Positions 54,312 through 64,000 are shown, counted from the first letter of the stretch. The stretch is DNA of 64,000 nucleotides from Candidatus Iainarchaeum sp. (GCA_017610175.1 JAFCCO010000004.1:1-64000); one strand, 5' to 3'. Translations and numbers: made by a program. The notes: generated by a model not told the origin, from the letters alone.

Positions 54312-55241
54312 ATGGCTGAAAGCAGTATTAATTTGGCAATAATTGGCTCAGGCCCCGCAGGGATTACCGCAGGAATTTACGCCGCAAGAAAAAACCTTAG
54401 CGTGCGGGTTTTTGAGAGCGCTGCTTTGGGTGGACAGACATCGCTTGCAATCTTTGTGGAAAACTATCCCGGAACAAAGAGAATTCGCGGCTCTGAATTA
54501 ATGGACCAATGGGCAGAGCACTTGAAAGAGTTTGGGGTGGAAGTAGAGGAAGCAAACGGGATTAAAAGCGTTAAGAAGATTAACGGCGGATTTGAGCTTG
54601 TTACAGATGAAAAGGAAACCGTTAATGCAAAGGCCGTGCTGGTTGTAACCGGAACAGAAAACAAGAAGCTTGGAATTCCCGGCGAAAAAGAGCTTTACGG
54701 AAAAGGAATTTCATACTGTGCCAACTGCGACGGCCCCGTTTACAAGGGAAAGAAGGTTGCAGTAATTGGCGGGGGAAATTCGGGAGTGACAAACGGGCTG
54801 TTCATAGAAGAAATTGCGGCAGAAACAATGCTTATTGAATTTATGCCGGAACTAAACTGCGATGAAGTTTATTTGCCAAAGCTTGAGAAAAGCAAGATTA
54901 GGGTTTTGAAGAACACGCAGGCGCTTGAAGTTAAGGGAGAAGAGCGAGTGCAGGCACTAAAAGTAAAGGACAGGGCAACAGGGAAGGAAAGCGAGATTGC
55001 CGTTGATGGAATTTTTATCTACGTTGGGTTAGAGCCGAGGAACAGGCTTGCAAAAGAGCTTGGATGCAAGCTGGACAAGTGGGGCTTCATTGAAACAAGT
55101 GTGGAGCAGGCAAGTTCTGTAAAGGGCGTGTTTGCGGCAGGAGACATTGTTTCAGGCACTTTGGCTCAGACAGTGTGGGCGGCGGCAAGCGGTGCAAGGG
55201 CGGCTCTTGCAGCCTACGACTTCATAAAACAAGGCAAGTAG
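54312..55241 (+). CDS. trxB: Thioredoxin-disulfide reductase
   Basis: GSGPAG, VENYPG, GISYCANCDG, GGGNSG, FAAGD. Confidence 0.9.
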   Translation: MAESSINLAIIGSGPAGITAGIYAARKNLSVRVFESAALGGQTSLAIFVENYPGTKRIRGSELMDQWAEHLKEFGVEVEEANGIKSVKKINGGFELVTDEKETVNAKAVLVVTGTENKKLGIPGEKELYGKGISYCANCDGPVYKGKKVAVIGGGNSGVTNGLFIEEIAAETMLIEFMPELNCDEVYLPKLEKSKIRVLKNTQALEVKGEERVQALKVKDRATGKESEIAVDGIFIYVGLEPRNRLAKELGCKLDKWGFIETSVEQASSVKGVFAAGDIVSGTLAQTVWAAASGARAALAAYDFIKQGK

Positions 55242-55258
55242 AAAGCCTTTTATATAAT

Positions 55259-55272
55259 ATGTTATATAACAT
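55259..55272. promoter_or_regulatory. Perfect 14-bp palindrome ATGTTATATAACAT just upstream of the RHH gene
   Basis: Lies within the 12-bp direct repeat TATAATATGTTA/TATAACATGTTG, next to a TATA box. Confidence 0.5.
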
Positions 55273-55279
55273 GTTGCAT

Positions 55280-55528
55280 ATGAAGCACTATTCTTTGGTG
55301 ATTGAGCCCAGGCTTATCAAAGAAGTTGATGCATTGATTAAAAAACATGGACTCTACAGCAGCAGAAGCGACTTCATAAGGGACGCAATAAGACAGCGCT
55401 TAATTGAAATTAAGCAAATTATGGGCGAACAGCAGGAAGAAGATGAAAAATTATCCGCAAAGGAAAGGAAAGAGCAGGAAATGCTCGAGAAGGCAATAGA
55501 CGAATTCAAGTACCGCGGTGTCTACTAA
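55280..55528 (+). CDS. Ribbon-helix-helix (CopG/MetJ) DNA-binding protein
   Basis: YSLVI..LIKEVDALI..YSSRSDFIRDAIR. Confidence 0.85.
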   Translation: MKHYSLVIEPRLIKEVDALIKKHGLYSSRSDFIRDAIRQRLIEIKQIMGEQQEEDEKLSAKERKEQEMLEKAIDEFKYRGVY

Positions 55529-55577
55529 CTAATTAAGCTTTTTAATGCTTTGAGACCCATTAATAGCGGGTCGGGAT

Positions 55578-56405
55578 ATGGCATTTTCAGGAAAAAAAGA
55601 CAAACACACAGTCCTAATTCTATCCGAACAGGAATCAAGGGATTCTGGAATTGAGCTCAACAAAGAGTACGAGCTGGTTAATGCAAAAAAGGGAATCTGG
55701 CTCATGGTTGAAACAGGCAATGCAAAGGAAACGCAGCCAAAGCCGGCTGAGGAAAAGCCTGTTGAAAAGGAAGAGCAGAAAGCCAAACCAAAAAAGAGCC
55801 CTCGCGAAGTTGAACTTGAGGCAAAGATTGTCGAAATGATTGACTCACTCCCCTTGGGTGAGCGGGTTGAGGGAAAATTCGAGGAAAAGCTCAGCGAAGA
55901 GGAAAAGCCCGTTTTTGAAGCAATGATTAAAGAGAGCCAAGTGGTGGCATTCAGGTTAAGCAACAAATACAAGAAAGCGGTTTACAAGCTTGCGGCCGAG
56001 AAAGCCGGGGCTGCGAAGGATTCAGGAGTGAAGGACGCTGAGAGAACAGGAGCCCCTGAAAAAAAGATTGAGGAATACTCTCTTGAAAAAGACGGAATCA
56101 TGGTAATCAAAAACGAGCAGAGGGCAAAAAGCATTTCAGCGCGGCTCAGCAAAGAGATTAAAGAGGGAAAAATTAAGGGAATTCGCGGATTTGACGGCGT
56201 GTTCTATGTGGTGGAGGAGGAGCTCTACAAAAAATACAGGGAGCTCGCACTTAAGGAACTAAGGGTGAAGGAAAAACTTGCGCTCAACGACATTGCGCAA
56301 AAAATAGGGGTCTCAAAGACTCTTGCAAGAATAGTTTGTGAATTTTTAAAGGACGAAGGCGAGATAATTGAAAAAAGCAAAGAAACCTACCAGTTCATCA
56401 GCTGA
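55578..56405 (+). CDS. Hypothetical protein with possible C-terminal winged helix
   Basis: Long charged ORF; LNDIAQKIGVS..EFLKDEGEI. Confidence 0.7.
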   Translation: MAFSGKKDKHTVLILSEQESRDSGIELNKEYELVNAKKGIWLMVETGNAKETQPKPAEEKPVEKEEQKAKPKKSPREVELEAKIVEMIDSLPLGERVEGKFEEKLSEEEKPVFEAMIKESQVVAFRLSNKYKKAVYKLAAEKAGAAKDSGVKDAERTGAPEKKIEEYSLEKDGIMVIKNEQRAKSISARLSKEIKEGKIKGIRGFDGVFYVVEEELYKKYRELALKELRVKEKLALNDIAQKIGVSKTLARIVCEFLKDEGEIIEKSKETYQFIS

Positions 56406-56817
56406 AAAGAAAGAGTGGAAACGCACATTGATTCCGCTTGTTTCGGGAAAAGAAAATGACGACTATTTTATCAGGCGCGCAGGCGAGGGCGCGGATGAGC
56501 TTGTGCTGCTTCTGGTTGTTGACACTGCCGCAATGCCTGGCGGGTTTGGGTTTGCCGCATCAGAGATAGGGCACGGCAACGCATTAATGGAGGAAATTAA
56601 GGAAACCGCAAAAAAGCATGTGCGCGAATGCAAGGACATCGTTGAGTGGGGGGACACCGAATCAAAAATAACCCACCTGATTCAGTTAAAAGAAATTAAG
56701 CGCGTCTTCCTTATAAAGCAGGACAACGAATTTTTTAAAAATCTTGTAAAGGCGATTGGTAAAAATACAAATGCAGAGGTTGAATTGGTTGAGCTGGAGG
56801 AAATGAAAGATGAGTGA
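56368..56817 (+). CDS. Universal-stress-protein-like hypothetical protein
   Basis: LIPL..LLLVVD..VEWGD..KI pattern; start uncertain. Confidence 0.55.
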   Translation: MKKAKKPTSSSAEKKEWKRTLIPLVSGKENDDYFIRRAGEGADELVLLLVVDTAAMPGGFGFAASEIGHGNALMEEIKETAKKHVRECKDIVEWGDTESKITHLIQLKEIKRVFLIKQDNEFFKNLVKAIGKNTNAEVELVELEEMKDE

Positions 56818-57601
56818 CCTGCTTGAAGTTGCAAAGAAAGCCGCAAGGGCGGGCGGAAAGGTTGCAATGAAATATTTTGGGACAGATGTTGAATTTGAAA
56901 CAAAGGAAGACAAAACATTTGTGAGTGTTGCAGACCGCGAGTCAGAGGAAGAAATCAGAAAAATTGTTAGCGCCAAGTTTCCAAAACACGAAATCAAGGG
57001 AGAGGAAGGCAGTGAAACAGGGAAAAGCAACATTGTGTGGCACGTTGACCCGATTGACGGCACAAGCAACTTCAAAAACAACATCCCCCTAAGTGCAGTT
57101 TCAATCGGGATTGAAAAGGACGGGGAGTTTATAGTGGGAGTTGTTTACCACCCCCACGTTGACGAACTGTATCACGCTGAAAAGGGAAAGGGGGCTTTTC
57201 TGAACGGAAAGCCAATCAAAGTAAATTCATTCACCCCGAACGAAGGGATTATTGTAATCGATTCATCCTTTCGGGGGGACAGAGTTCCAAGAAAGTACAA
57301 GGCCTTTGGGGGGATATTGAAAAGATGCTCGCGCTACAGGATGATTGGCTGCGCATCGCTTCAGCTCTGCTGGCTTGCGCGCGGAAACTTTGTTTCATCA
57401 CTCTCTGACGCCATCCACTCCTTCGACTTTGCGGCAGGAGCGGTTATTGTAAGGGAAGCGGGCGGCATTGTAACCGACACGCTTGGAAACGAATTGAGCG
57501 CAGACTCAAAAGCAATTGTTGCATCAAACAATAAAGAGAACCACAAAATGGTTGTGGACGTTACAAAACAGTTTTACAAGGGGTACAAGGGAATTGATTA
57601 A
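56810..57601 (+). CDS. suhB: Inositol monophosphatase / FBPase family
   Basis: GEE, VDPIDGTSNF, DFAAG..IVREAGG. Confidence 0.9.
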   Translation: MSDLLEVAKKAARAGGKVAMKYFGTDVEFETKEDKTFVSVADRESEEEIRKIVSAKFPKHEIKGEEGSETGKSNIVWHVDPIDGTSNFKNNIPLSAVSIGIEKDGEFIVGVVYHPHVDELYHAEKGKGAFLNGKPIKVNSFTPNEGIIVIDSSFRGDRVPRKYKAFGGILKRCSRYRMIGCASLQLCWLARGNFVSSLSDAIHSFDFAAGAVIVREAGGIVTDTLGNELSADSKAIVASNNKENHKMVVDVTKQFYKGYKGID

Positions 57602-58686
57602 TTTCCCTTAACAATCTTTTCGGCAATTTTCCTTTTCTTCTTTGCCTTTGCCTGGTGCTTCTTCAGCATATCCTTTAGGAAGTCCTTTGTGTACTGCTTG
57701 CACTCACTGCAAAGCCACTTTCCTTCCCTGCACTCGTCCCAAATCCTCTGAACCTCTTTCCCATCCTCAAGGTGGAACAAAAGCAGTTCGTGAACCTTGC
57801 AGACCCCCGGGTTTCCGCCAAGCCTTCTTTGCTCTTCAAGCGTGTTCCTTCCGCCTGTAAAAGCGTTTGAAACCTTGCGGTCCAGCTCGGATTCTGAATC
57901 GTTCAGGAAAATTGCAGTGTCAGGCTGAGAGGCCGACATTTTTGAACCCTCCTTAAGCCCGCTTTGGTGCCTGAAGTAAATGAATGAAGGAACCTCCAAT
58001 GGATAGGATAGGCGCTTTGCAATATCCCTCGTTAAGCGTGCATGCGGGTCCTGGTCCAAACCAATCCCGGTAATGCTCGGCATCTTTCCATCAAATTCGT
58101 CAAGCTGCCCGTGCAGAATGTCGGCGTACTGCAAAAGGTTTGCGGAAACCTTGCCCAAGTCAAGGTGCCCGTAGATTGCCTCAAACATGTTTTTGGTTAT
58201 CTTCTTGCTGAGCTCAAACGCAAAGCTGTAGTAACGCCTTTCACGGTTGCTCTGCACCTTAATGTCCTTTGCGCCAACACCCAGCGCAAGTGCGTCAGCG
58301 GCATTGTCGATTGCAAATTTCTGCGCGTATGCAAGGGACCGAATCTTTTTGTCGGGCCTGCTTACATAGCCGTCTATGTCGCAAACACAGAAATAGTTTT
58401 TGGCCCCAAGTGACTTGAACAAAACAAACAGGTCAATGTCCGCTTTGTGCCCAAGATGAAACTGCCCCGAGCTTGCAATCCCTGTAATGTTTATGAACGG
58501 CTTTTTGGATTCAATTCTTGAAAGGACTTTTCCAAAATCTCTGTGTGCAACAATTATTCCGCGCGAAAAAAACCTGTGACCCATTTTGCTTCGCCAGTTT
58601 TCGGGAAACTCCGAGAGGCCAAACTGTTTGAATACGTGCTCGTAATCGCTTACTGCAGCGCTTGCCCAAGGATCTATTTTTGCCAT
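57598..58686 (-). CDS. trpS: Tryptophanyl-tRNA synthetase, archaeal type
   Basis: IDPW, HRD, HLGH, QYADI, GLDQDPH, KMSAS, AFTGGR. Confidence 0.93.
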   Translation of the reverse strand: MAKIDPWASAAVSDYEHVFKQFGLSEFPENWRSKMGHRFFSRGIIVAHRDFGKVLSRIESKKPFINITGIASSGQFHLGHKADIDLFVLFKSLGAKNYFCVCDIDGYVSRPDKKIRSLAYAQKFAIDNAADALALGVGAKDIKVQSNRERRYYSFAFELSKKITKNMFEAIYGHLDLGKVSANLLQYADILHGQLDEFDGKMPSITGIGLDQDPHARLTRDIAKRLSYPLEVPSFIYFRHQSGLKEGSKMSASQPDTAIFLNDSESELDRKVSNAFTGGRNTLEEQRRLGGNPGVCKVHELLLFHLEDGKEVQRIWDECREGKWLCSECKQYTKDFLKDMLKKHQAKAKKKRKIAEKIVKGN

Positions 58687-58750
58687 CCATTCACCTAAAT
58701 ACTTATTTATAAACTATTTAATGTAGTAATTAATAATATTTAAACCCTAG

Positions 58751-59266
58751 GTGTTGCATTTGGGAGAACTATTGCAGAACAAAGTTGTTGTCGGGGACAA
58801 AAAAACAAAGGACACCCTGCTTCAAAAGGGATTCGGGGAAAAGAAGGGGAAGGAACTTGTTCTTGACTTAAAGGAAGCTCTTTTTCTTTTGGAGAAAGAC
58901 AAGCTTGAGGTAGAGCTTGCGGGAAAAAAGCTTTCAGCCAAAAAGCTGAGGGAGTATGCTTCGGCACGCGAGGCAAAATTTTACTCAAAATTCCTTGTGT
59001 TCTCAGATTTGAGGGAGAAGGGTTTCTGCGTTAAAACAGGGTTCAAATTTGGATTCGATTTCAGGGTTTATCCCCGCGGAAAGAAACCGGGAGAGGCCCA
59101 CACACAGCAGGTTGTGAAGGTCTTTACCCAGGATGACGGGAAAAGCATGATTGAACTTAGCAGAATGGTCAGGCTTGCAGGCAACCTAAGGACTCTTTTT
59201 AGCATAGCCGTTGTAGACAGCGAAAACGACATAAACTATTACTCAATTCAGCGAATTACGCCTTAG
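58751..59266 (+). CDS. endA: tRNA-splicing endonuclease (tRNA-intron lyase) subunit
   Basis: EALFL, DLREKG..KTGFKFG.DFRVY, H, AVVD.ENDINYY. Confidence 0.9.
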   Translation: MLHLGELLQNKVVVGDKKTKDTLLQKGFGEKKGKELVLDLKEALFLLEKDKLEVELAGKKLSAKKLREYASAREAKFYSKFLVFSDLREKGFCVKTGFKFGFDFRVYPRGKKPGEAHTQQVVKVFTQDDGKSMIELSRMVRLAGNLRTLFSIAVVDSENDINYYSIQRITP

Positions 59267-59659: not shown

Positions 59660-60028
59660 TCAGCCTAGATGCTTTCTGACTTCTTGAACAATGCGCTCAC
59701 TGCTGAACGGCTTGTGAATGCAACCGCAAATATTTATCTCCTTTAACGACTCCAGACCCCCTGATGAAATTCTCGCGGTCGACATCAAAATAAGTTTCAT
59801 TTCATTTAGATCGGAGTTCTTGGATATTTCTTCGCATACCTGCCTGCCGCTCATATTGGGCATGAACAAATCAATAAAAGCAAGGTCAAAGTGCTCGGAG
59901 CAAACCTTCTTAATTGCCTCTTTGCCATCCAAGGCTATTGAAACAAGCACATTTTCGCCTGCCAAGGCATGGGAAACAGACTCGCAAATTGCCTGCTCAT
60001 CATCAACTACAATTATTTTCTTGGTCAT
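59660..60028 (-). CDS. Stand-alone response regulator receiver (CheY-like)
   Basis: IIVVDDE, DLFMPNMSG (phospho-Asp), ST, HKPF. Confidence 0.9.
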   Translation of the reverse strand: MTKKIIVVDDEQAICESVSHALAGENVLVSIALDGKEAIKKVCSEHFDLAFIDLFMPNMSGRQVCEEISKNSDLNEMKLILMSTARISSGGLESLKEINICGCIHKPFSSERIVQEVRKHLG

Positions 60029-60167
60029 TCTGAAAAAAAGCCCCCCAGCTGTTATAATTATATAATTAATTCCAGGGTTAATAAGTCTTAGCAAAGTTTA
60101 AACAAAATAAGGTAAATGTTTAAACTAATTAAATGTTTAAATAACCCTTAATGTCAGAATAAAAACA

Positions 60168-61268
60168 ATGACCGGGGGGATAGAGGTCTGTGACACCACG
60201 CTTCGCGATGGTGAGCAAATGCCTGGGGTGGTTTTTTCACTCAAAGAAAAAAGAGAACTTGCAAGAGCTTCCTCCGAATTCGGGTCCAGCATAATCGAAG
60301 TCATGCCTGCGATTTCAAAAACAGAGCAAAGGCTTGCCAAAAGCCTTGCACATGAAAACCTTGCCGCAAAAATAACCGCTTCAACCCTCTCCAAAAAAGA
60401 ACACATTGAGCTTGCAACAAACTGCGATCTTGACCACATAACCCTTTTTACATCACTTTCAGACAACCATTTGAAACACAAGCTTAATATCTCCAGGGAA
60501 GAGAACCTTTCAAAATCACTTGAAATGGTGGACTTTGCAAAGTCACAGGGGCTTGCCGTTGCTTTTGCAGGGGAGGATTCAACAAGGGCAAACAAAGAAT
60601 ACCTCCACAAATTCGTTAAGGCAATGGCCGGCAAAATAGATTATTTTCTCCCATGCGACACAGTGGGCTGCCTGCAACCATTTCAGACTTACAGATTCAT
60701 AAAACAACTCGTAAAAAATACAGGCAGCAAAATTGCACTGCACACCCACAACGACTTTGGCATGGCAACCGCAAACACAATTGCAGGAATAATGGCGGGG
60801 GCAGAGGTCTTCTCCGGAACGTTCAACGGAATTGGGGAGAGAAGTGGGAATGCAGCAATCGAAGAGGTGTGCATGGCATTAAAGGTTCTGCTCAAAAAAG
60901 ACCTTGGGTTGAAGTATGAAATGCTTACAAGAATCTGCAACAGGGTGGAAAAGTATTCAAGGGCAAAAATGCACAAACACAAACCCATTGTTGGAAAGAA
61001 TTCTTTCAGGCACGAGTCCGGCACGCACGTTGCAGGCGTGTTGAAAGATCCGTCAACTTACGAAATATTTGATCCTGCAGAAGTGGGCCAGACAAGAAAA
61101 ATAGTGTTTGGCAAACACTCCGGAATGCGTGCAGTAAAAAAGATTCTGAAGGGGTCAAAGGGAAGGCTCAACAGAAAACTGCAGCTTCTGAAAAGAACCG
61201 CTGAACGGGAGAAAAAAAGCTTTTCGGAGAGAAAGGCAAGGAAGCTAATGCTGGGGAGCTTGCAATGA
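60168..61268 (+). CDS. Homocitrate/isopropylmalate-synthase-family (DRE-TIM) acyl-CoA condensing enzyme, no regulatory domain
   Basis: DTTLRDGEQ, EDSTR, CDTVG, HTHNDFG, GERSGNA, HESGTH, GKHSG. Confidence 0.88.
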   Translation: MTGGIEVCDTTLRDGEQMPGVVFSLKEKRELARASSEFGSSIIEVMPAISKTEQRLAKSLAHENLAAKITASTLSKKEHIELATNCDLDHITLFTSLSDNHLKHKLNISREENLSKSLEMVDFAKSQGLAVAFAGEDSTRANKEYLHKFVKAMAGKIDYFLPCDTVGCLQPFQTYRFIKQLVKNTGSKIALHTHNDFGMATANTIAGIMAGAEVFSGTFNGIGERSGNAAIEEVCMALKVLLKKDLGLKYEMLTRICNRVEKYSRAKMHKHKPIVGKNSFRHESGTHVAGVLKDPSTYEIFDPAEVGQTRKIVFGKHSGMRAVKKILKGSKGRLNRKLQLLKRTAEREKKSFSERKARKLMLGSLQ

Positions 61269-62071
61269 GTAGCTTGGGCGAACTGAGAAAATTCCTGCGC
61301 CTGAAAATTGCGTTCGGAACAGCAAGCTTTGGAGTGATTGCATTTCTATTGTTCAACAACATGGGAAGCGCGATTGTCTTTCCAGTAGCAAGCATCTTCC
61401 TGCTTACAATAGCCGGCTACTCATACAACTCAGTTACAGATGTGAAGGAGGACAGGACAAACCTTGGCCGCGTAAACAAGTTTGCGGAGGGAGCAGAGGG
61501 AAAAGCAATTGCATTTGCATTCTTTGCAGGGGGGACGGCGTTTGCATTATTTCTTGAAACTGTTGCACTGGCAGCATACCTTGCCGCTGCTTTTCTTTTC
61601 TGGGCATACTCAAAATTCAGGGTAAAAAAAGTATTGCTCGGAAAGAACGTTTACATCTGGCTGCTTTTTGCGCTTGTTTTCCTGATTGGGACAAATGCAA
61701 CTGAGCCAACCGCTGTTGGAATTGCATACTCAATTTTCTTTTCAGCGTTTATTTTTGTGCAAAGCATTATTGCGGACTTAAGAGATGTTAAGGGCGACCG
61801 CAAAGCCGGACTTAAAACACTGCCCATTGCGCTTGGGACTGCAAACGCAAAAGCATTGCTTACAGTATTTATTGTTGCGTGGCAGGTTAGCTTGCTTGCA
61901 ATAAGCCCGCTGTTCTTTGTGCTCTTTGTTCCGTTCACCGCAGCAGACATATTTTTCCTGGCAAAGGGAGAGTACACAAAAGCCCACTTGTCGGGTTTTG
62001 TTGGAGCGCACGTTTTCAGCGCCTCACTTGTTTTGGTAAATTTATTCATTTATTTCGGAGGTGTTGTTTGA
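61265..62071 (+). CDS. UbiA-family prenyltransferase
   Basis: NSVTDVKED and DLRDVKGDRKAGLKTLP; multi-TM. Confidence 0.85.
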   Translation: MSSLGELRKFLRLKIAFGTASFGVIAFLLFNNMGSAIVFPVASIFLLTIAGYSYNSVTDVKEDRTNLGRVNKFAEGAEGKAIAFAFFAGGTAFALFLETVALAAYLAAAFLFWAYSKFRVKKVLLGKNVYIWLLFALVFLIGTNATEPTAVGIAYSIFFSAFIFVQSIIADLRDVKGDRKAGLKTLPIALGTANAKALLTVFIVAWQVSLLAISPLFFVLFVPFTAADIFFLAKGEYTKAHLSGFVGAHVFSASLVLVNLFIYFGGVV

Positions 62072-62934
62072 TGTTTACCCATGAAACAAAGGAAGCCGGG
62101 TTCACAAAAAAAGTTTTTCTTGCAGGAAAGAGGATAAAACCCGCAATCGGAATAATTCTTCCATTCACACTATTGCATGCGGCGCTATTCAATGTGTTCT
62201 CAATTGAATCTGTGTTTATTGCAATCGGCTTTGCTTCAATTTACCTCTTTGCAGACATGTTCAACGACTTCTATGATTTGCATGAAGACCTTAGAAACGA
62301 AAGAAAGGACAAGCTGTTGATTTCAACAGGCATGAAGAAGAGGCAAATCCTTCACATGTCCTATTTTTTCCTAGTGTTTGGAGTGACTCTGCTGTTTGGA
62401 TTCTCCGCCGTGCTTGGTGCTGCCGGATTGTTTCTTGCAATTGCAGGATGGGCTTACACACACCCTTTTGTTAGGCTGAAAAAATACGAAGTTTATGGCT
62501 ATGTGTTAAGCAGCACGCCCTTTTTTGCGCTTCCGTTTGCACTCTCAAGCCATTACGGGCGGGAGTTTTCCATTTCACTGGCCCTGCTGGCTGTTTTTAG
62601 TTATACGCAGTATGTTTACATTCTTTGCCAGAAGGATGCAACAGATTTGAAGGATGATGTAAACCTGTTTCTTAAAAGAAGCAACACGGTTGCTTCGCTG
62701 ATAACCGGAGCGTTTTCAATCACGGCATCGCTTGCAATTCTTGCAGTTGCAATGTTAAGCGGCCTGCAATTACTTTTGATTGTGTGGATTGCAAATCTTG
62801 CAATAAAGCTGAAGAATCTTTCTGGAATCTACTCCAAAAGTATTGGGAGGGGAAAGAGATTCAGGCTGACAACATATGAATTCATATCGCACTATGCCTT
62901 TTTTGTTGCGGCTTTGTTAGCCGGATTTGTATGA
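62071..62934 (+). CDS. Second, divergent UbiA-family prenyltransferase
   Basis: NDFYDLHED, YT.P.VRLK, KDATDLKDD; GGAGGTG RBS. Confidence 0.78.
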   Translation: MFTHETKEAGFTKKVFLAGKRIKPAIGIILPFTLLHAALFNVFSIESVFIAIGFASIYLFADMFNDFYDLHEDLRNERKDKLLISTGMKKRQILHMSYFFLVFGVTLLFGFSAVLGAAGLFLAIAGWAYTHPFVRLKKYEVYGYVLSSTPFFALPFALSSHYGREFSISLALLAVFSYTQYVYILCQKDATDLKDDVNLFLKRSNTVASLITGAFSITASLAILAVAMLSGLQLLLIVWIANLAIKLKNLSGIYSKSIGRGKRFRLTTYEFISHYAFFVAALLAGFV

Positions 62935-63927
62935 GAGAATAAGCTTTCTGGAGAACTCCTTTGAGCCAACAAATTTGAATGAGTTGTCCATCGCCCTTAG
63001 ATAGCCAAGAATGTATTGTGCAATGAAGTCCCATTTGTCCTTAGCAAGTTGCATGCCGTAGGGAGGGTGTCGTATGTTGACCGAAAGGCTCTTGCCATTT
63101 TGCAAAATGTCAACTTCGCCAAAGCCGTTAAGCTGGAAGAGAAGCTTTGCATGCCTGAACCCTCCATTAAATTCTCTTGATTTGGATAGCTTGGTTTTGA
63201 AAAAATCCTCCGAAGCTCTTGCAAGCAGTTCAAGCTTCACGCCCTTCTGTGCAATTAAGTGCGGAAGGGAAGTTTCCATAATGAACATTTTTTTGCCCAA
63301 GTAAAATACACGGTTTTTGCGCAGCGAAACAGCCCCTGCACGAATCAGTTCCTCCAAGGATTGCTTTTTGTTGGGCCTCATTGTGTTCAGCCAATAATAT
63401 TCCTTCTTGTCCTTGAGTGCTAGGTCAATTTTTTCGTTTCCGAGCGCGATTGTGTAAACTCCGCCGGTTCCATTCCAGTCAAGGTTCACAAGATTTGCTT
63501 TCTTCAAATAGTATGCTTCAACCACTCCGGTGAAAAGCCCTTTGGAGAAACTGTTTTCCCCAATGAATCTGACGAAAGGTTCGCCCTTTGTTTCAATAAT
63601 TGTGTTTTCCCCGGATTTTTTTGCGTGGCATTTTTCAAGAATGCCGATTTTTTTCCAGAGCCGTTCAAGAAGGAGATTAATGCAGCTTTCAAGCGGCAAA
63701 ACCTTTACAACAGACGGAGCGTAAGCATTAATCATTATGGTCATCCAGTCCCCTGCAAGCTCTTCCATCTCTTTTTCGAAACCTGCCTTTTCGCACATTT
63801 GGAAATAGTTTGCAAGGATTTCCTCAAAGAAAAGGATGTCCCTTCTTTTTTTGCCAAAGCCCGAACTGAAAAGCGAGCCACGCCTTGACTGGACAATTTT
63901 TCTTTGGATAAAATCAGCCAATGACAT
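62917..63927 (-). CDS. Protein with two V4R/H-NOX-like ligand-binding repeats
   Basis: LWKKIG..EPF..FSKGLFTG and LNGFGEVDI..HPPY..FIAQYILG patterns. Confidence 0.55.
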   Translation of the reverse strand: MSLADFIQRKIVQSRRGSLFSSGFGKKRRDILFFEEILANYFQMCEKAGFEKEMEELAGDWMTIMINAYAPSVVKVLPLESCINLLLERLWKKIGILEKCHAKKSGENTIIETKGEPFVRFIGENSFSKGLFTGVVEAYYLKKANLVNLDWNGTGGVYTIALGNEKIDLALKDKKEYYWLNTMRPNKKQSLEELIRAGAVSLRKNRVFYLGKKMFIMETSLPHLIAQKGVKLELLARASEDFFKTKLSKSREFNGGFRHAKLLFQLNGFGEVDILQNGKSLSVNIRHPPYGMQLAKDKWDFIAQYILGYLRAMDNSFKFVGSKEFSRKLILSYKSG

Positions 63928-63943
63928 GCTTTGCCCCCCCTAA

Positions 63944-64000
63944 TTAGACTGCTTTCGTTTTTCCCATTCTGATACTTTTGGAATCAATAACTACGGAGTG
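63944..64000 (-). CDS. 3' end of a gene entering from beyond the window (...HSVVIDSKSIRMGKTKAV*)
   Basis: Open frame ending in TAA 16 nt before the next gene's ATG. Confidence 0.45.
   Translation of the reverse strand, partial: HSVVIDSKSIRMGKTKAV

Follow-up and report, generated by a model that had tools for sequence, protein, structure and literature searches.

A recurrent isoprenoid-enzyme cassette convergent with a KaiC-like/V4R-type gene pair in small-genome archaea

The first 64,000 nucleotides of a contig of Candidatus Iainarchaeum sp. (GCA_017610175.1, JAFCCO010000004.1:1-64000), which are referred to here as the window and correspond to C5:1-64000 of an assembly with 34 contigs (1.24 Mb, 90% complete), end in a group of genes in which an operon for a short DRE-TIM enzyme and two UbiA-superfamily prenyltransferases faces an operon for a small protein, a KaiC-like ATPase and a 336-aa protein, named P336 here (Table 1). 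In the first-pass annotation, made from the sequence of the window alone, a receiver gene, the three enzyme genes and the P336 gene had been described as a candidate module for the synthesis and sensing of a small molecule, and these five genes are recovered in place by the open reading frame list and by the Pfam and NCBIfam scans. The enzyme operon is translationally coupled, as that annotation had stated, and inspection of the sequence locates the couplings in an ATGA overlap between the DRE-TIM and UbiA1 genes (61265-61268) and in a TGATG junction between the UbiA1 and UbiA2 genes (62069-62073).

The UbiA2 and P336 genes converge, and their 3' ends share 18 nt. A KaiC-like ATPase had been foretold beyond the window and is the very next gene on the contig; its start is overlapped by 4 nt by the end of the gene of a 108-aa protein. 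Because the KaiC-like and 108-aa genes continue on the minus strand, P336 is taken to close an operon that runs from the small protein through KaiC to P336 and converges on the enzyme operon. Archaeal markers are a tRNA-intron endonuclease, a histone-like open reading frame and KaiC-like genes.

Table 1. Features of the module and of the signalling genes that follow it; positions are those of the window, or of contig C5 where so marked.
Feature	Position	Strand	Basis or remark
Stand-alone response-regulator receiver	59660-60094	-	PF00072
AT-rich divergent promoter region	60029-60167		between the receiver and DRE-TIM genes
Short DRE-TIM Claisen-condensing enzyme, 366 aa	60168-61268	+	PF00682 and PF22617
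UbiA1, UbiA-superfamily membrane prenyltransferase	61265-62071	+	PF01040
UbiA2, second, very divergent UbiA-superfamily prenyltransferase	62068-62934	+	PF01040
P336, 336-aa cytosolic protein, two predicted V4R/Bet3/H-NOX-type repeats	62917-63927	-	structure model
KaiC-like ATPase gene, 3' end in the window	63944-64000 (whole gene C5 63944-64621)	-	PF06745
Small gene, suggestively AbrB-like, 108 aa, beyond the window	C5 64618-64944	-	motif; no Pfam match
Signalling block, part 1: S51 peptidase, DUF2683 protein, DUF6580/DUF4430 membrane proteins, winged helix-turn-helix protein, receiver	C5 65174-74474		
Signalling block, part 2: 944-aa Cache-HAMP-PAS protein without a kinase domain, Cache-HAMP histidine kinase, two further receivers	C5 65174-74474		

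This neighbourhood recurs in related archaea. Loci with a relative of P336 were found by pattern scans with the P336 alignment, 7 from species genomes and 42 from metagenomes, which after removal of one duplicate gives 48 unique loci, and their neighbours were counted from tblastn tables. A convergent UbiA gene lies within 2.5 kb in 21 of the 21 loci having at least 1.8 kb of downstream DNA, and when considering the loci with at least 4.2 kb downstream, a UbiA gene is present in 14/14 and a DRE-TIM gene in 12/14. On the upstream side of P336, a KaiC gene (at least 40% identical) is found in 24 of the 27 loci with at least 1.3 kb of upstream DNA, or 28 of 32 when at least 0.8 kb is required, and the small protein in 23 of the 27; in L039, L048 and L066 the small protein and KaiC are encoded as a pair on the opposite strand. 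Six loci, the window included, have both UbiA types, and the gene order is DRE-TIM, UbiA1, UbiA2 here and DRE-TIM, UbiA2, UbiA1 in the other five. The identity to the window proteins is 24-33% for P336, 27-39% for the UbiAs, 36-52% for the small protein, 45-54% for KaiC and 46-60% for the DRE-TIM enzyme, and since the neighbourhood recurs in dozens of loci at 24-60% protein identity, the arrangement is beyond chance. The linkage of a LeuA-like enzyme, UbiA and P336, for which a gene-neighbourhood search had been proposed, is thus a recurrent one, and this gene order supports a functional link between the enzyme operon and the V4R-like protein. The receiver had been counted as part of the module as well; it is a frequent neighbour and not a constant one, as 7 of the 14 loci whose downstream DNA extends to 4.2 kb or more have a receiver gene. 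The species-genome locus records are labelled Aenigmatarchaeota, Altiarchaeota, Nanohaloarchaea or plain archaeon, and the term DPANN as used here rests on the names of related records only.

The further content of the enzyme operons varies, as seen when 90 neighbour proteins were scanned with Pfam and NCBIfam. A radical SAM/SPASM enzyme is the most frequent of the additions to the operons of the relatives (9 loci); a cis-prenyltransferase and a UbiE-like methyltransferase are found in 3 loci each, and a CruF-like protein in 1. The best NCBIfam rows of the radical SAM enzymes are of the NirJ2, AhbC/D and MoaA types (127-133 bits, far under the cut-offs), and the methyltransferases match UbiE/MenG and corrinoid-associated types, again far under the cut-offs. 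Stand-alone Pfam V4R, DUF835/KaiC-like or helix-turn-helix proteins are encoded divergently from the DRE-TIM gene in several loci. In a FastTree of 25 P336 sequences the cassette types partly track the tree and partly differ among close relatives, a pattern that fits an exchangeable enzyme set in a constant sensor frame. In one locus (L023, 4770-5753), a HEPN/minimal-nucleotidyltransferase pair and an opposite-strand KaiC fragment are inserted between the KaiC gene and the P336 homologue.

P336 itself has no Pfam family at E<=0.1 and no NCBIfam match. A word-based search returned three relatives and a profile of five sequences was then built; the family comprises 173 representative clusters at E<=1e-3 and 127 at E<=1e-30, mostly of 330-340 aa. 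The AlphaFold model, calculated from a five-row alignment, has a pLDDT of 73.9 and a pTM of 0.78 and consists of two alpha/beta repeats behind a poorly modelled N-terminus. The top Foldseek matches in the PDB are Bet3/TRAPPC3 (E 8.5e-4), YslB, the V4R protein MJ1460 (E 5e-3, 22% identity), BcsD and H-NOX, and the palmitate-bound Bet3 structure 6aq3 is among the matches. When the repeats are compared separately using VIA-align, the N repeat (residues about 25-166) matches BcsD (Z 8.0, rmsd 3.5, 126 aligned residues), PoxR (Z 7.2, rmsd 3.4, 125 aligned), MopR (Z 7.2, rmsd 3.1, 124 aligned), Bet3-TPC6B (Z 7.2, rmsd 3.1, 129 aligned) and also H-NOX, and the C repeat (residues 218-335) matches MJ1460 (Z 6.6, rmsd 3.0, 98 aligned, 19% identity). 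The two halves align weakly to one another (hhalign local E 0.019, 75 columns). In the protein atlas, P336 lies beside archaeal hypothetical clusters, one of which has PF02830, the Pfam V4R family, in 12% of its members; PF02830 is not found anywhere in the genome of the window. The tandem V4R-like repeats of the first-pass annotation are thus matched, twice, by the fold of the predicted structure, and the description as a tandem V4R-type protein is accepted despite moderate scores because the top matches are all of one fold class. On this model, P336 is accepted as a protein of an unnamed family with two predicted repeats of the V4R/Bet3/H-NOX type.

Among the 215 species genomes of its own phylum, full-length P336 is found in G000 and G082 only, and the cassette-type DRE-TIM enzyme is equally rare. 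Nine other genomes of the phylum (G039, G172, G154, G157, G116, G059, G113, G101 and G139; loci L073-L082) have partial P336 matches, in frames of about 290-390 aa that match the C-terminal repeat only (E 1e-6 to 6e-11) and that mostly lie beside KaiC-like genes, such a gene adjoining 6/10 of these loci. It is possible that a wider pairing of KaiC with V4R-repeat proteins exists, as may be read from these neighbourhoods.

The KaiC-like ATPase is a single-domain protein of 225 aa (PF06745, E 4.3e-34), and its Walker A motif (GxxGxGKT), Glu61 and Asp119 are invariant in 22/22 cassette-linked KaiC-like sequences. Co-folding of KaiC with P336 gives an ipSAE of 0.52 versus 0.00 for the best control, which is weak support for a complex. 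In the calibration of the co-folding tool, 116 of 157 solved complexes but also 2 of 215 mismatched pairs attained the mark used, and the scores of 0.60 or lower comprise only 18 of those solved complexes plus both mismatches. The three co-folding runs share at least 96% of the contacts, and the partner pLDDT is at least 85.

The 108-aa protein has no sequence match in Pfam, NCBIfam or the PDB, and its profile gives one chance row (E 1.2) against the PDB. Its core, LTTGKLGNxNRIMLPxKIL, is invariant in 21 homologues and includes a G-x-x-x-R-I-x-L-P-K motif, which resembles the strand-loop motif of the AbrB/SpoVT type. The monomer model is weak (pLDDT 66), with MazE, VapB and AbrB-like C56/C68 as top Foldseek matches at non-significant E values of 0.4-3, and the assignment as an AbrB-like protein is only suggestive because of this model and these E values.

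The receiver gene is divergent from the enzyme operon. Its open reading frame reaches a TTG at 60094, the probable start being the ATG at 60028 (122 aa), and residues 27-139 match PF00072 (E 1.7e-20); the DD pair, the phospho-acceptor Asp, the Ser/Thr and the Lys are retained when the translation is read by eye. In the region between the receiver and DRE-TIM genes, the 15-mer TAAATGTTTAAATAA is present at 60130-60144, starting 38 nt ahead of the DRE-TIM start codon, and an identical copy is found at C5 64966-64980 (minus strand; L004 6966-6980), starting 36 nt ahead of the start codon of the 108-aa gene. The string ATGTTTAAA has 4 occurrences in 18 kb versus 0.49 expected, and 3 of the 4 are within the two promoter regions. 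The longest strings in common with the promoters of other loci are of 12 nt or less, and the sharing of promoter motifs between both operons in 9 other loci is not above controls. The common 15-mer may be a promoter or operator element of both operons, and its placement would fit an archaeal TATA/BRE (B recognition element) of a leaderless mRNA.

The DRE-TIM enzyme has the HMGL-like barrel domain (PF00682, E 1.5e-60) and the post-barrel HCS_D2 subdomain (PF22617, E 4.4e-20), the combination that marks the LeuA/homocitrate synthase/CimA group, and it is without a C-terminal regulatory domain; it belongs with the isopropylmalate/homocitrate/citramalate synthases. It reaches no NCBIfam equivalog cut-off: the best row is TIGR02090 (356.2 bits versus 484.75), followed by nifV (343.9 versus 462.9), LysS (271.2 versus 413.55), leuA_bact (232.4 versus 598.7) and citramalate synthase (166.1 versus 450). 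The nearest solved structure is the homocitrate synthase 6ktq (E 6.9e-61). The motifs DTTLRDGEQ, HTHND, GERSGNA and HESGTH are retained and align with those of 6ktq and of isopropylmalate synthases, and the underlying RDGEQ, HxHxD, GERxGN and HxSGxH are presumably the catalytic and metal-binding motifs. The identity is 35% to the LeuA and 32% to the CimA-like protein of the same genome, both of which are long paralogues, and 46-60% to the cassette-linked homologues as aligned by tblastn. When all sources are taken together, the clade of short DRE-TIM enzymes has more than 120 clusters (49-61% identity), whose source names point to metagenome-assembled genomes of Altiarchaeales, Woesearchaeota, Nanoarchaeota and Aenigmatarchaeota. 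Many of these records (P0159, P0176, P0180, P0192 and others) carry the public name 'homoaconitate hydratase', which looks like a propagated annotation error because the HMGL-like and HCS_D2 domains do not fit that name.

Both prenyltransferases match PF01040 above the cut-off of 34.2 bits (UbiA1 72.3 bits, UbiA2 59.3 bits), and both retain the Asp-rich motifs that had been read in them, as do their clades: NxxxDxxED and DxRDxxGD in UbiA1, kept in 18 clade members, and NDxxDxxED and DxxDxxD in UbiA2. UbiA1, the most constant enzyme of the cassette, scores at most 60.5 bits with any NCBIfam model, the cut-offs being at least 269; with the DGGGP synthase model it reaches 54.5 bits versus a cut-off of 296, and UbiA2 has no row for that model. 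Weak ChlG or MenA rows are seen for both. A word-based search of 5.8 billion proteins with UbiA2 returned the query alone, and a weak match (E 5.4e-4) was all that was found in 41 related genomes; the tblastn comparison of the related loci detects UbiA2 homologues of 29-39% identity in the cassettes of other loci. In a quick maximum-likelihood tree of 40 rows, in which the branch of the G000 UbiA1 is long, one clade (SH-aLRT 100) unites the 9 UbiA2-type proteins and the UbiA1-type proteins make up a group of 22 (support 92), which takes in the genes of L016 and L018 that were fetched as general UbiA matches and that lie beside KaiC-like fragments. The DGGGP-synthase-like genes, including that on contig C1 of the same genome, form a distinct clade (support 98), so that in this tree the cassette UbiAs are set apart from the housekeeping enzyme. 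In some relatives the UbiA domain is fused to a long N-terminal multi-pass membrane region, giving proteins of about 500 aa in total (L009 in G004, and frames of about 450-555 aa in G020, G095, G159, G056, G129, G087, G093 and G160).

The rest of the genome bears on what the cassette is for. The cassette DRE-TIM gene is the third paralogue of three HMGL-like genes; the LeuA on C6 is canonical (NF002086, 720 bits versus a cut-off of 532) and adjoins LeuCD and LeuB, and the gene on C33 is CimA-like. The cassette enzyme is thus distinct from a canonical LeuA present elsewhere in the genome. Matches to aconitase, isopropylmalate dehydrogenase and GGGP synthase are absent from C5 and located on C6, C20, C7 and C13, the GGGP synthase gene being on C7, so the absence of such partners, first noted for the window, extends to the whole contig. 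A third UbiA, on C1, scores 209 bits with the DGGGP synthase model (cut-off 296). With LeuA, CimA, LeuBCD, GGGP synthase and a DGGGP-synthase-like enzyme encoded at other places in the genome, the cassette does not appear to serve the usual synthesis of leucine or archaeol. The genome, which is 90% complete, has a single cis-prenyltransferase and a single polyprenyl synthase, and a squalene or phytoene synthase family was not found in it. When orthologues of the cassette-type radical SAM enzyme, methyltransferase, CruF-like protein and stand-alone V4R protein are sought in it, generic paralogues or nothing are found, the best matches to the cassette-type radical SAM enzyme being generic radical SAM genes of 22-34% identity. 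P336 and the small protein are single-copy, and KaiC-like genes number nine. One of these lies directly upstream of the sole cis-prenyltransferase gene (C22 3407-5113), and two KaiC-like genes and a DUF835-like gene are about 2 kb from the sole polyprenyl synthase gene (C28 39319-44417); in view of these two neighbourhoods, the link between KaiC-like proteins and isoprenoid genes may be wider in this genome.

Four genomes of the same family (L087-L090) have a common gene order with the window over 54312-59266, which ends exactly at the tRNA-intron endonuclease gene, and nothing in common with 59.6-76 kb, so that the module and the dense signalling block that follows it lie at a synteny break. 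This break and the sparse occurrence place the module in a variable region and make its distribution patchy. Some 2 kb upstream of it is a gene for an inositol monophosphatase (window 56810-57601), and in one related locus a myo-inositol-1-phosphate synthase gene adjoins the cassette (L026 9674-10774); these inositol genes may be a coincidence or a hint of an inositol head group. When seven proteins were scanned with the PADLOC models of anti-phage defence systems, no significant match was obtained, the weak rows (17.8-18.5 bits) being two for the P-loop ATPase and one for the receiver. A search for public sequencing runs returned none, and no holder of RNA data was listed.

The reading that we favour, with a probability of roughly 55%, is that the module is a conserved accessory isoprenoid cassette coupled to a KaiC/V4R sensor-regulator in small-genome, DPANN-type archaea. 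The DRE-TIM enzyme, being of the LeuA/homocitrate synthase type, would condense acetyl-CoA with a 2-oxoacid, and one or two divergent membrane UbiAs would attach isoprenoid chains, so that the cassette would yield a membrane-associated prenylated small molecule, in the simplest version a prenylated hydroxy-acid of the 2-alkylmalate type. The simplest chemistry would be that the hydroxy-acid from the DRE-TIM enzyme undergoes O- or ester-prenylation, a guess based on the chemistry of the UbiA family, which includes the prenylation of hydroxyls, as in DGGGP synthase, and of carboxylates, as in chlorophyll synthase. The V4R pockets of P336 would bind the hydrophobic product or a precursor, and the ligand occupancy would pass from P336 to the KaiC-like ATPase; the AbrB-like protein and the neighbouring receivers, the latter supplying a two-component input, would relay it to the transcription of both operons. 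Of the first-pass reading as a whole, the linkage and the sensor fold have stood; the product and the signalling role are what we infer, as are ligand binding, ATPase coupling and regulation.

Several observations weigh against this reading. The Pfam V4R family does not match the P336 sequence, and the P336 fold is matched at moderate scores (Z 6.6-8.0, Foldseek E near 1e-3), with the caution that VIA-align Z scores below 8 can mean a common arrangement alone. The AbrB-like nature of the 108-aa protein is suggested by a short motif and by non-significant Foldseek rows. The enzyme and sensor operons are convergent and are therefore not co-transcribed. The DRE-TIM gene is absent from L045 and L059, which are well covered, and from L026 and L069, which have about 3.6 kb of downstream DNA, and the hydroxy-acid would therefore not be essential in every version of the cassette. 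The prenylated hydroxy-acid is put forward as a possible product, and the NirJ/Ahb-type radical SAM enzymes, the UbiE-like methyltransferases and the weak ChlG similarity would also fit the tailoring of a quinone or tetrapyrrole.

The strongest competing explanation is that the module is a handling machine, in which the tandem V4R protein is a carrier or chaperone that collects the hydrophobic substrate or product from the membrane UbiAs, or hands it over to them, and KaiC powers its loading or release. This is an unlikely reading but the main rival. It would account for the link between P336 and UbiA being the tightest one (21/21, versus 12/14 for DRE-TIM and 24/27 for KaiC), and it agrees with the palmitate-bound Bet3 structure 6aq3 among the fold matches, with the weakly supportive co-folding of KaiC and P336 (0.52 versus 0.00 for the best control) and with the analogous role that has been proposed for BchJ, Bet3 similarly holding palmitate. 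However, P336 is never within the enzyme operon and is always co-oriented with KaiC and the seemingly DNA-binding small protein (the opposite-strand pairs described above aside), and the receivers and other regulators that crowd the neighbourhood suit signalling better than support of catalysis. The tailoring of a cofactor, in which the cassette would modify a quinone or tetrapyrrole and not a hydroxy-acid, is less likely and in our view improbable. UbiA would then have a role like that of chlorophyll synthase, heme O synthase or MenA, with NirJ/Ahb as the model for the radical SAM enzyme, UbiE/BchM for the methyltransferase and BchJ, of which V4R is a domain, for the V4R protein, as suggested by the NirJ2, AhbC/D and MoaA-type rows of the radical SAM enzymes (127-133 bits), the UbiE/MenG and corrinoid-associated matches of the methyltransferases and the weak ChlG or MenA rows of both UbiAs. 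Every such score is nevertheless far under the family cut-offs, the window cassette has no radical SAM enzyme or methyltransferase and its genome no orthologue of the cassette-type radical SAM enzyme, and no role is left for the DRE-TIM enzyme, which is present in 12/14 loci.

It is also conceivable, at a very low probability, that the genes are neighbours by chance, with a DRE-TIM enzyme that makes homocitrate or citramalate as a housekeeping function, UbiAs that synthesize lipids and a KaiC/V4R operon whose signalling is unrelated to them. The DRE-TIM enzyme keeps all catalytic motifs and is nearest to a genuine homocitrate synthase, the short clade to which it belongs is common (more than 120 clusters at 49-61% identity), and the LeuCD and LeuB of the same genome could in principle process a 2-alkylmalate. 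Against pure coincidence stand the recurrence of the neighbours at 24-60% identity in 21/21, 12/14 and 24/27 informative loci, the overlap of start and stop codons inside the enzyme operon, and the LeuA, CimA-like and DGGGP-synthase-like genes that the genome already has. Among more specific pathways, carotenoid elongation by UbiA and a CruF-like protein, as in C50 routes, was rejected, as the CruF-like protein occurs in 1 locus only (30.5 bits) and neither a squalene nor a phytoene synthase family was found in the genome at its 90% completeness; synthesis of a nitrogenase cofactor by NifV and a NifB-like radical SAM enzyme was rejected as well, as the radical SAM enzyme is of the SPASM/NirJ type and UbiA is foreign to that pathway.

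The coupling of an isoprenoid cassette to a KaiC/V4R sensor-regulator can be compared with known systems. Archaeal KaiC-like ATPases were reportedly proposed as 'signal transduction hubs' by Makarova, Galperin and Koonin in mBio in 2017. Galperin et al. 2018 cite this hub proposal (PMC5847659), and the hub paper is included in the reference list of PMC6393860. The cassette resembles such hubs in that a P-loop ATPase of the KaiC/RadA type, single-domain and with its Walker motifs intact, shares an operon with small input/output proteins and has receivers nearby; it differs in that the partners are an unnamed tandem V4R protein and the putative AbrB-like protein, and in that the unit is locked to an isoprenoid cassette. 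The KaiC clock protein has two domains, whereas the cassette ATPase has one domain of 225 aa. Podar et al. 2008 support the homology of V4R and Bet3 and regard the V4R family as one that binds hydrophobic ligands and signals in cis or in trans (PMC2253512). By structure comparison, P336 has the same predicted alpha/beta fold as the V4R sensors (PoxR/MopR/XylR/DmpR, MJ1460, BchJ) and Bet3/TRAPP, but it lacks a PF02830 match, has two repeats in one 336-aa chain, no fused AAA+/helix-turn-helix output and no Cys cluster among its conserved columns, and has a KaiC-like partner.

With NifV/AksA/LysS/LeuA/CimA the cassette DRE-TIM enzyme has in common the HMGL-like and HCS_D2 domains and the metal and substrate motifs, but it is under every NCBIfam cut-off, is coupled to prenyltransferases and has no aconitase or dehydrogenase partner nearby. 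The cassette UbiAs share the UbiA Pfam domain and two Asp-rich motifs with DGGGP synthase, MenA, UbiA, ChlG, BchG, heme O synthase and the mycobacterial DPPR synthase, and the pairing of UbiA with a cis-prenyltransferase in some relatives is like that of the decaprenyl-phosphate route; they differ from the named families in scoring about 60 bits at most, compared with 209 bits for the C1 gene, and in forming separate clades. A likeness is also seen to the ComQXPA pherotype loci of Bacillus, in which a prenylated pheromone has a matching receptor: a prenylating enzyme stands beside a presumed sensor, the enzyme content is variable, and divergence is faster in the sensor (24-33% identity) and in the UbiAs (27-39%) than in KaiC (45-54%) or in the DRE-TIM enzyme (46-60%). 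This likeness is architectural only, as the core of the cassette has neither a peptide substrate nor a histidine-kinase receptor. Extending it, one may imagine that small symbiotic archaea have an isoprenoid signal system of their own, in which a strain-variable prenylated molecule would be released or displayed and read by the fast-diverging tandem V4R protein as its matching receptor, with a KaiC and AbrB-like output, as an archaeal lipid-based counterpart of a pherotype, possibly between symbiont and host; we consider this specific version distinctly doubtful. The first-pass annotation knew of no described pathway with this architecture, and no description of this gene combination was found in the searchable full-text literature, which did not include the KaiC hub study. 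The module is composed of known kinds of parts in a combination for which no published description was found.

Signalling through KaiC-like proteins in archaea has been proposed from genomics, almost without defined inputs, and the module offers a concrete and testable input, namely a putative ligand-binding protein, of a new family, whose gene is tied to those of the enzymes that would supply the ligand. The module further points to an isoprenoid product, so far undescribed, that involves a homocitrate-synthase-like enzyme, in organisms that are usually deemed minimal in biosynthesis. Should this product prove to be a signal or a specialized envelope lipid, it would be relevant to the way in which tiny archaea perceive themselves or their hosts.

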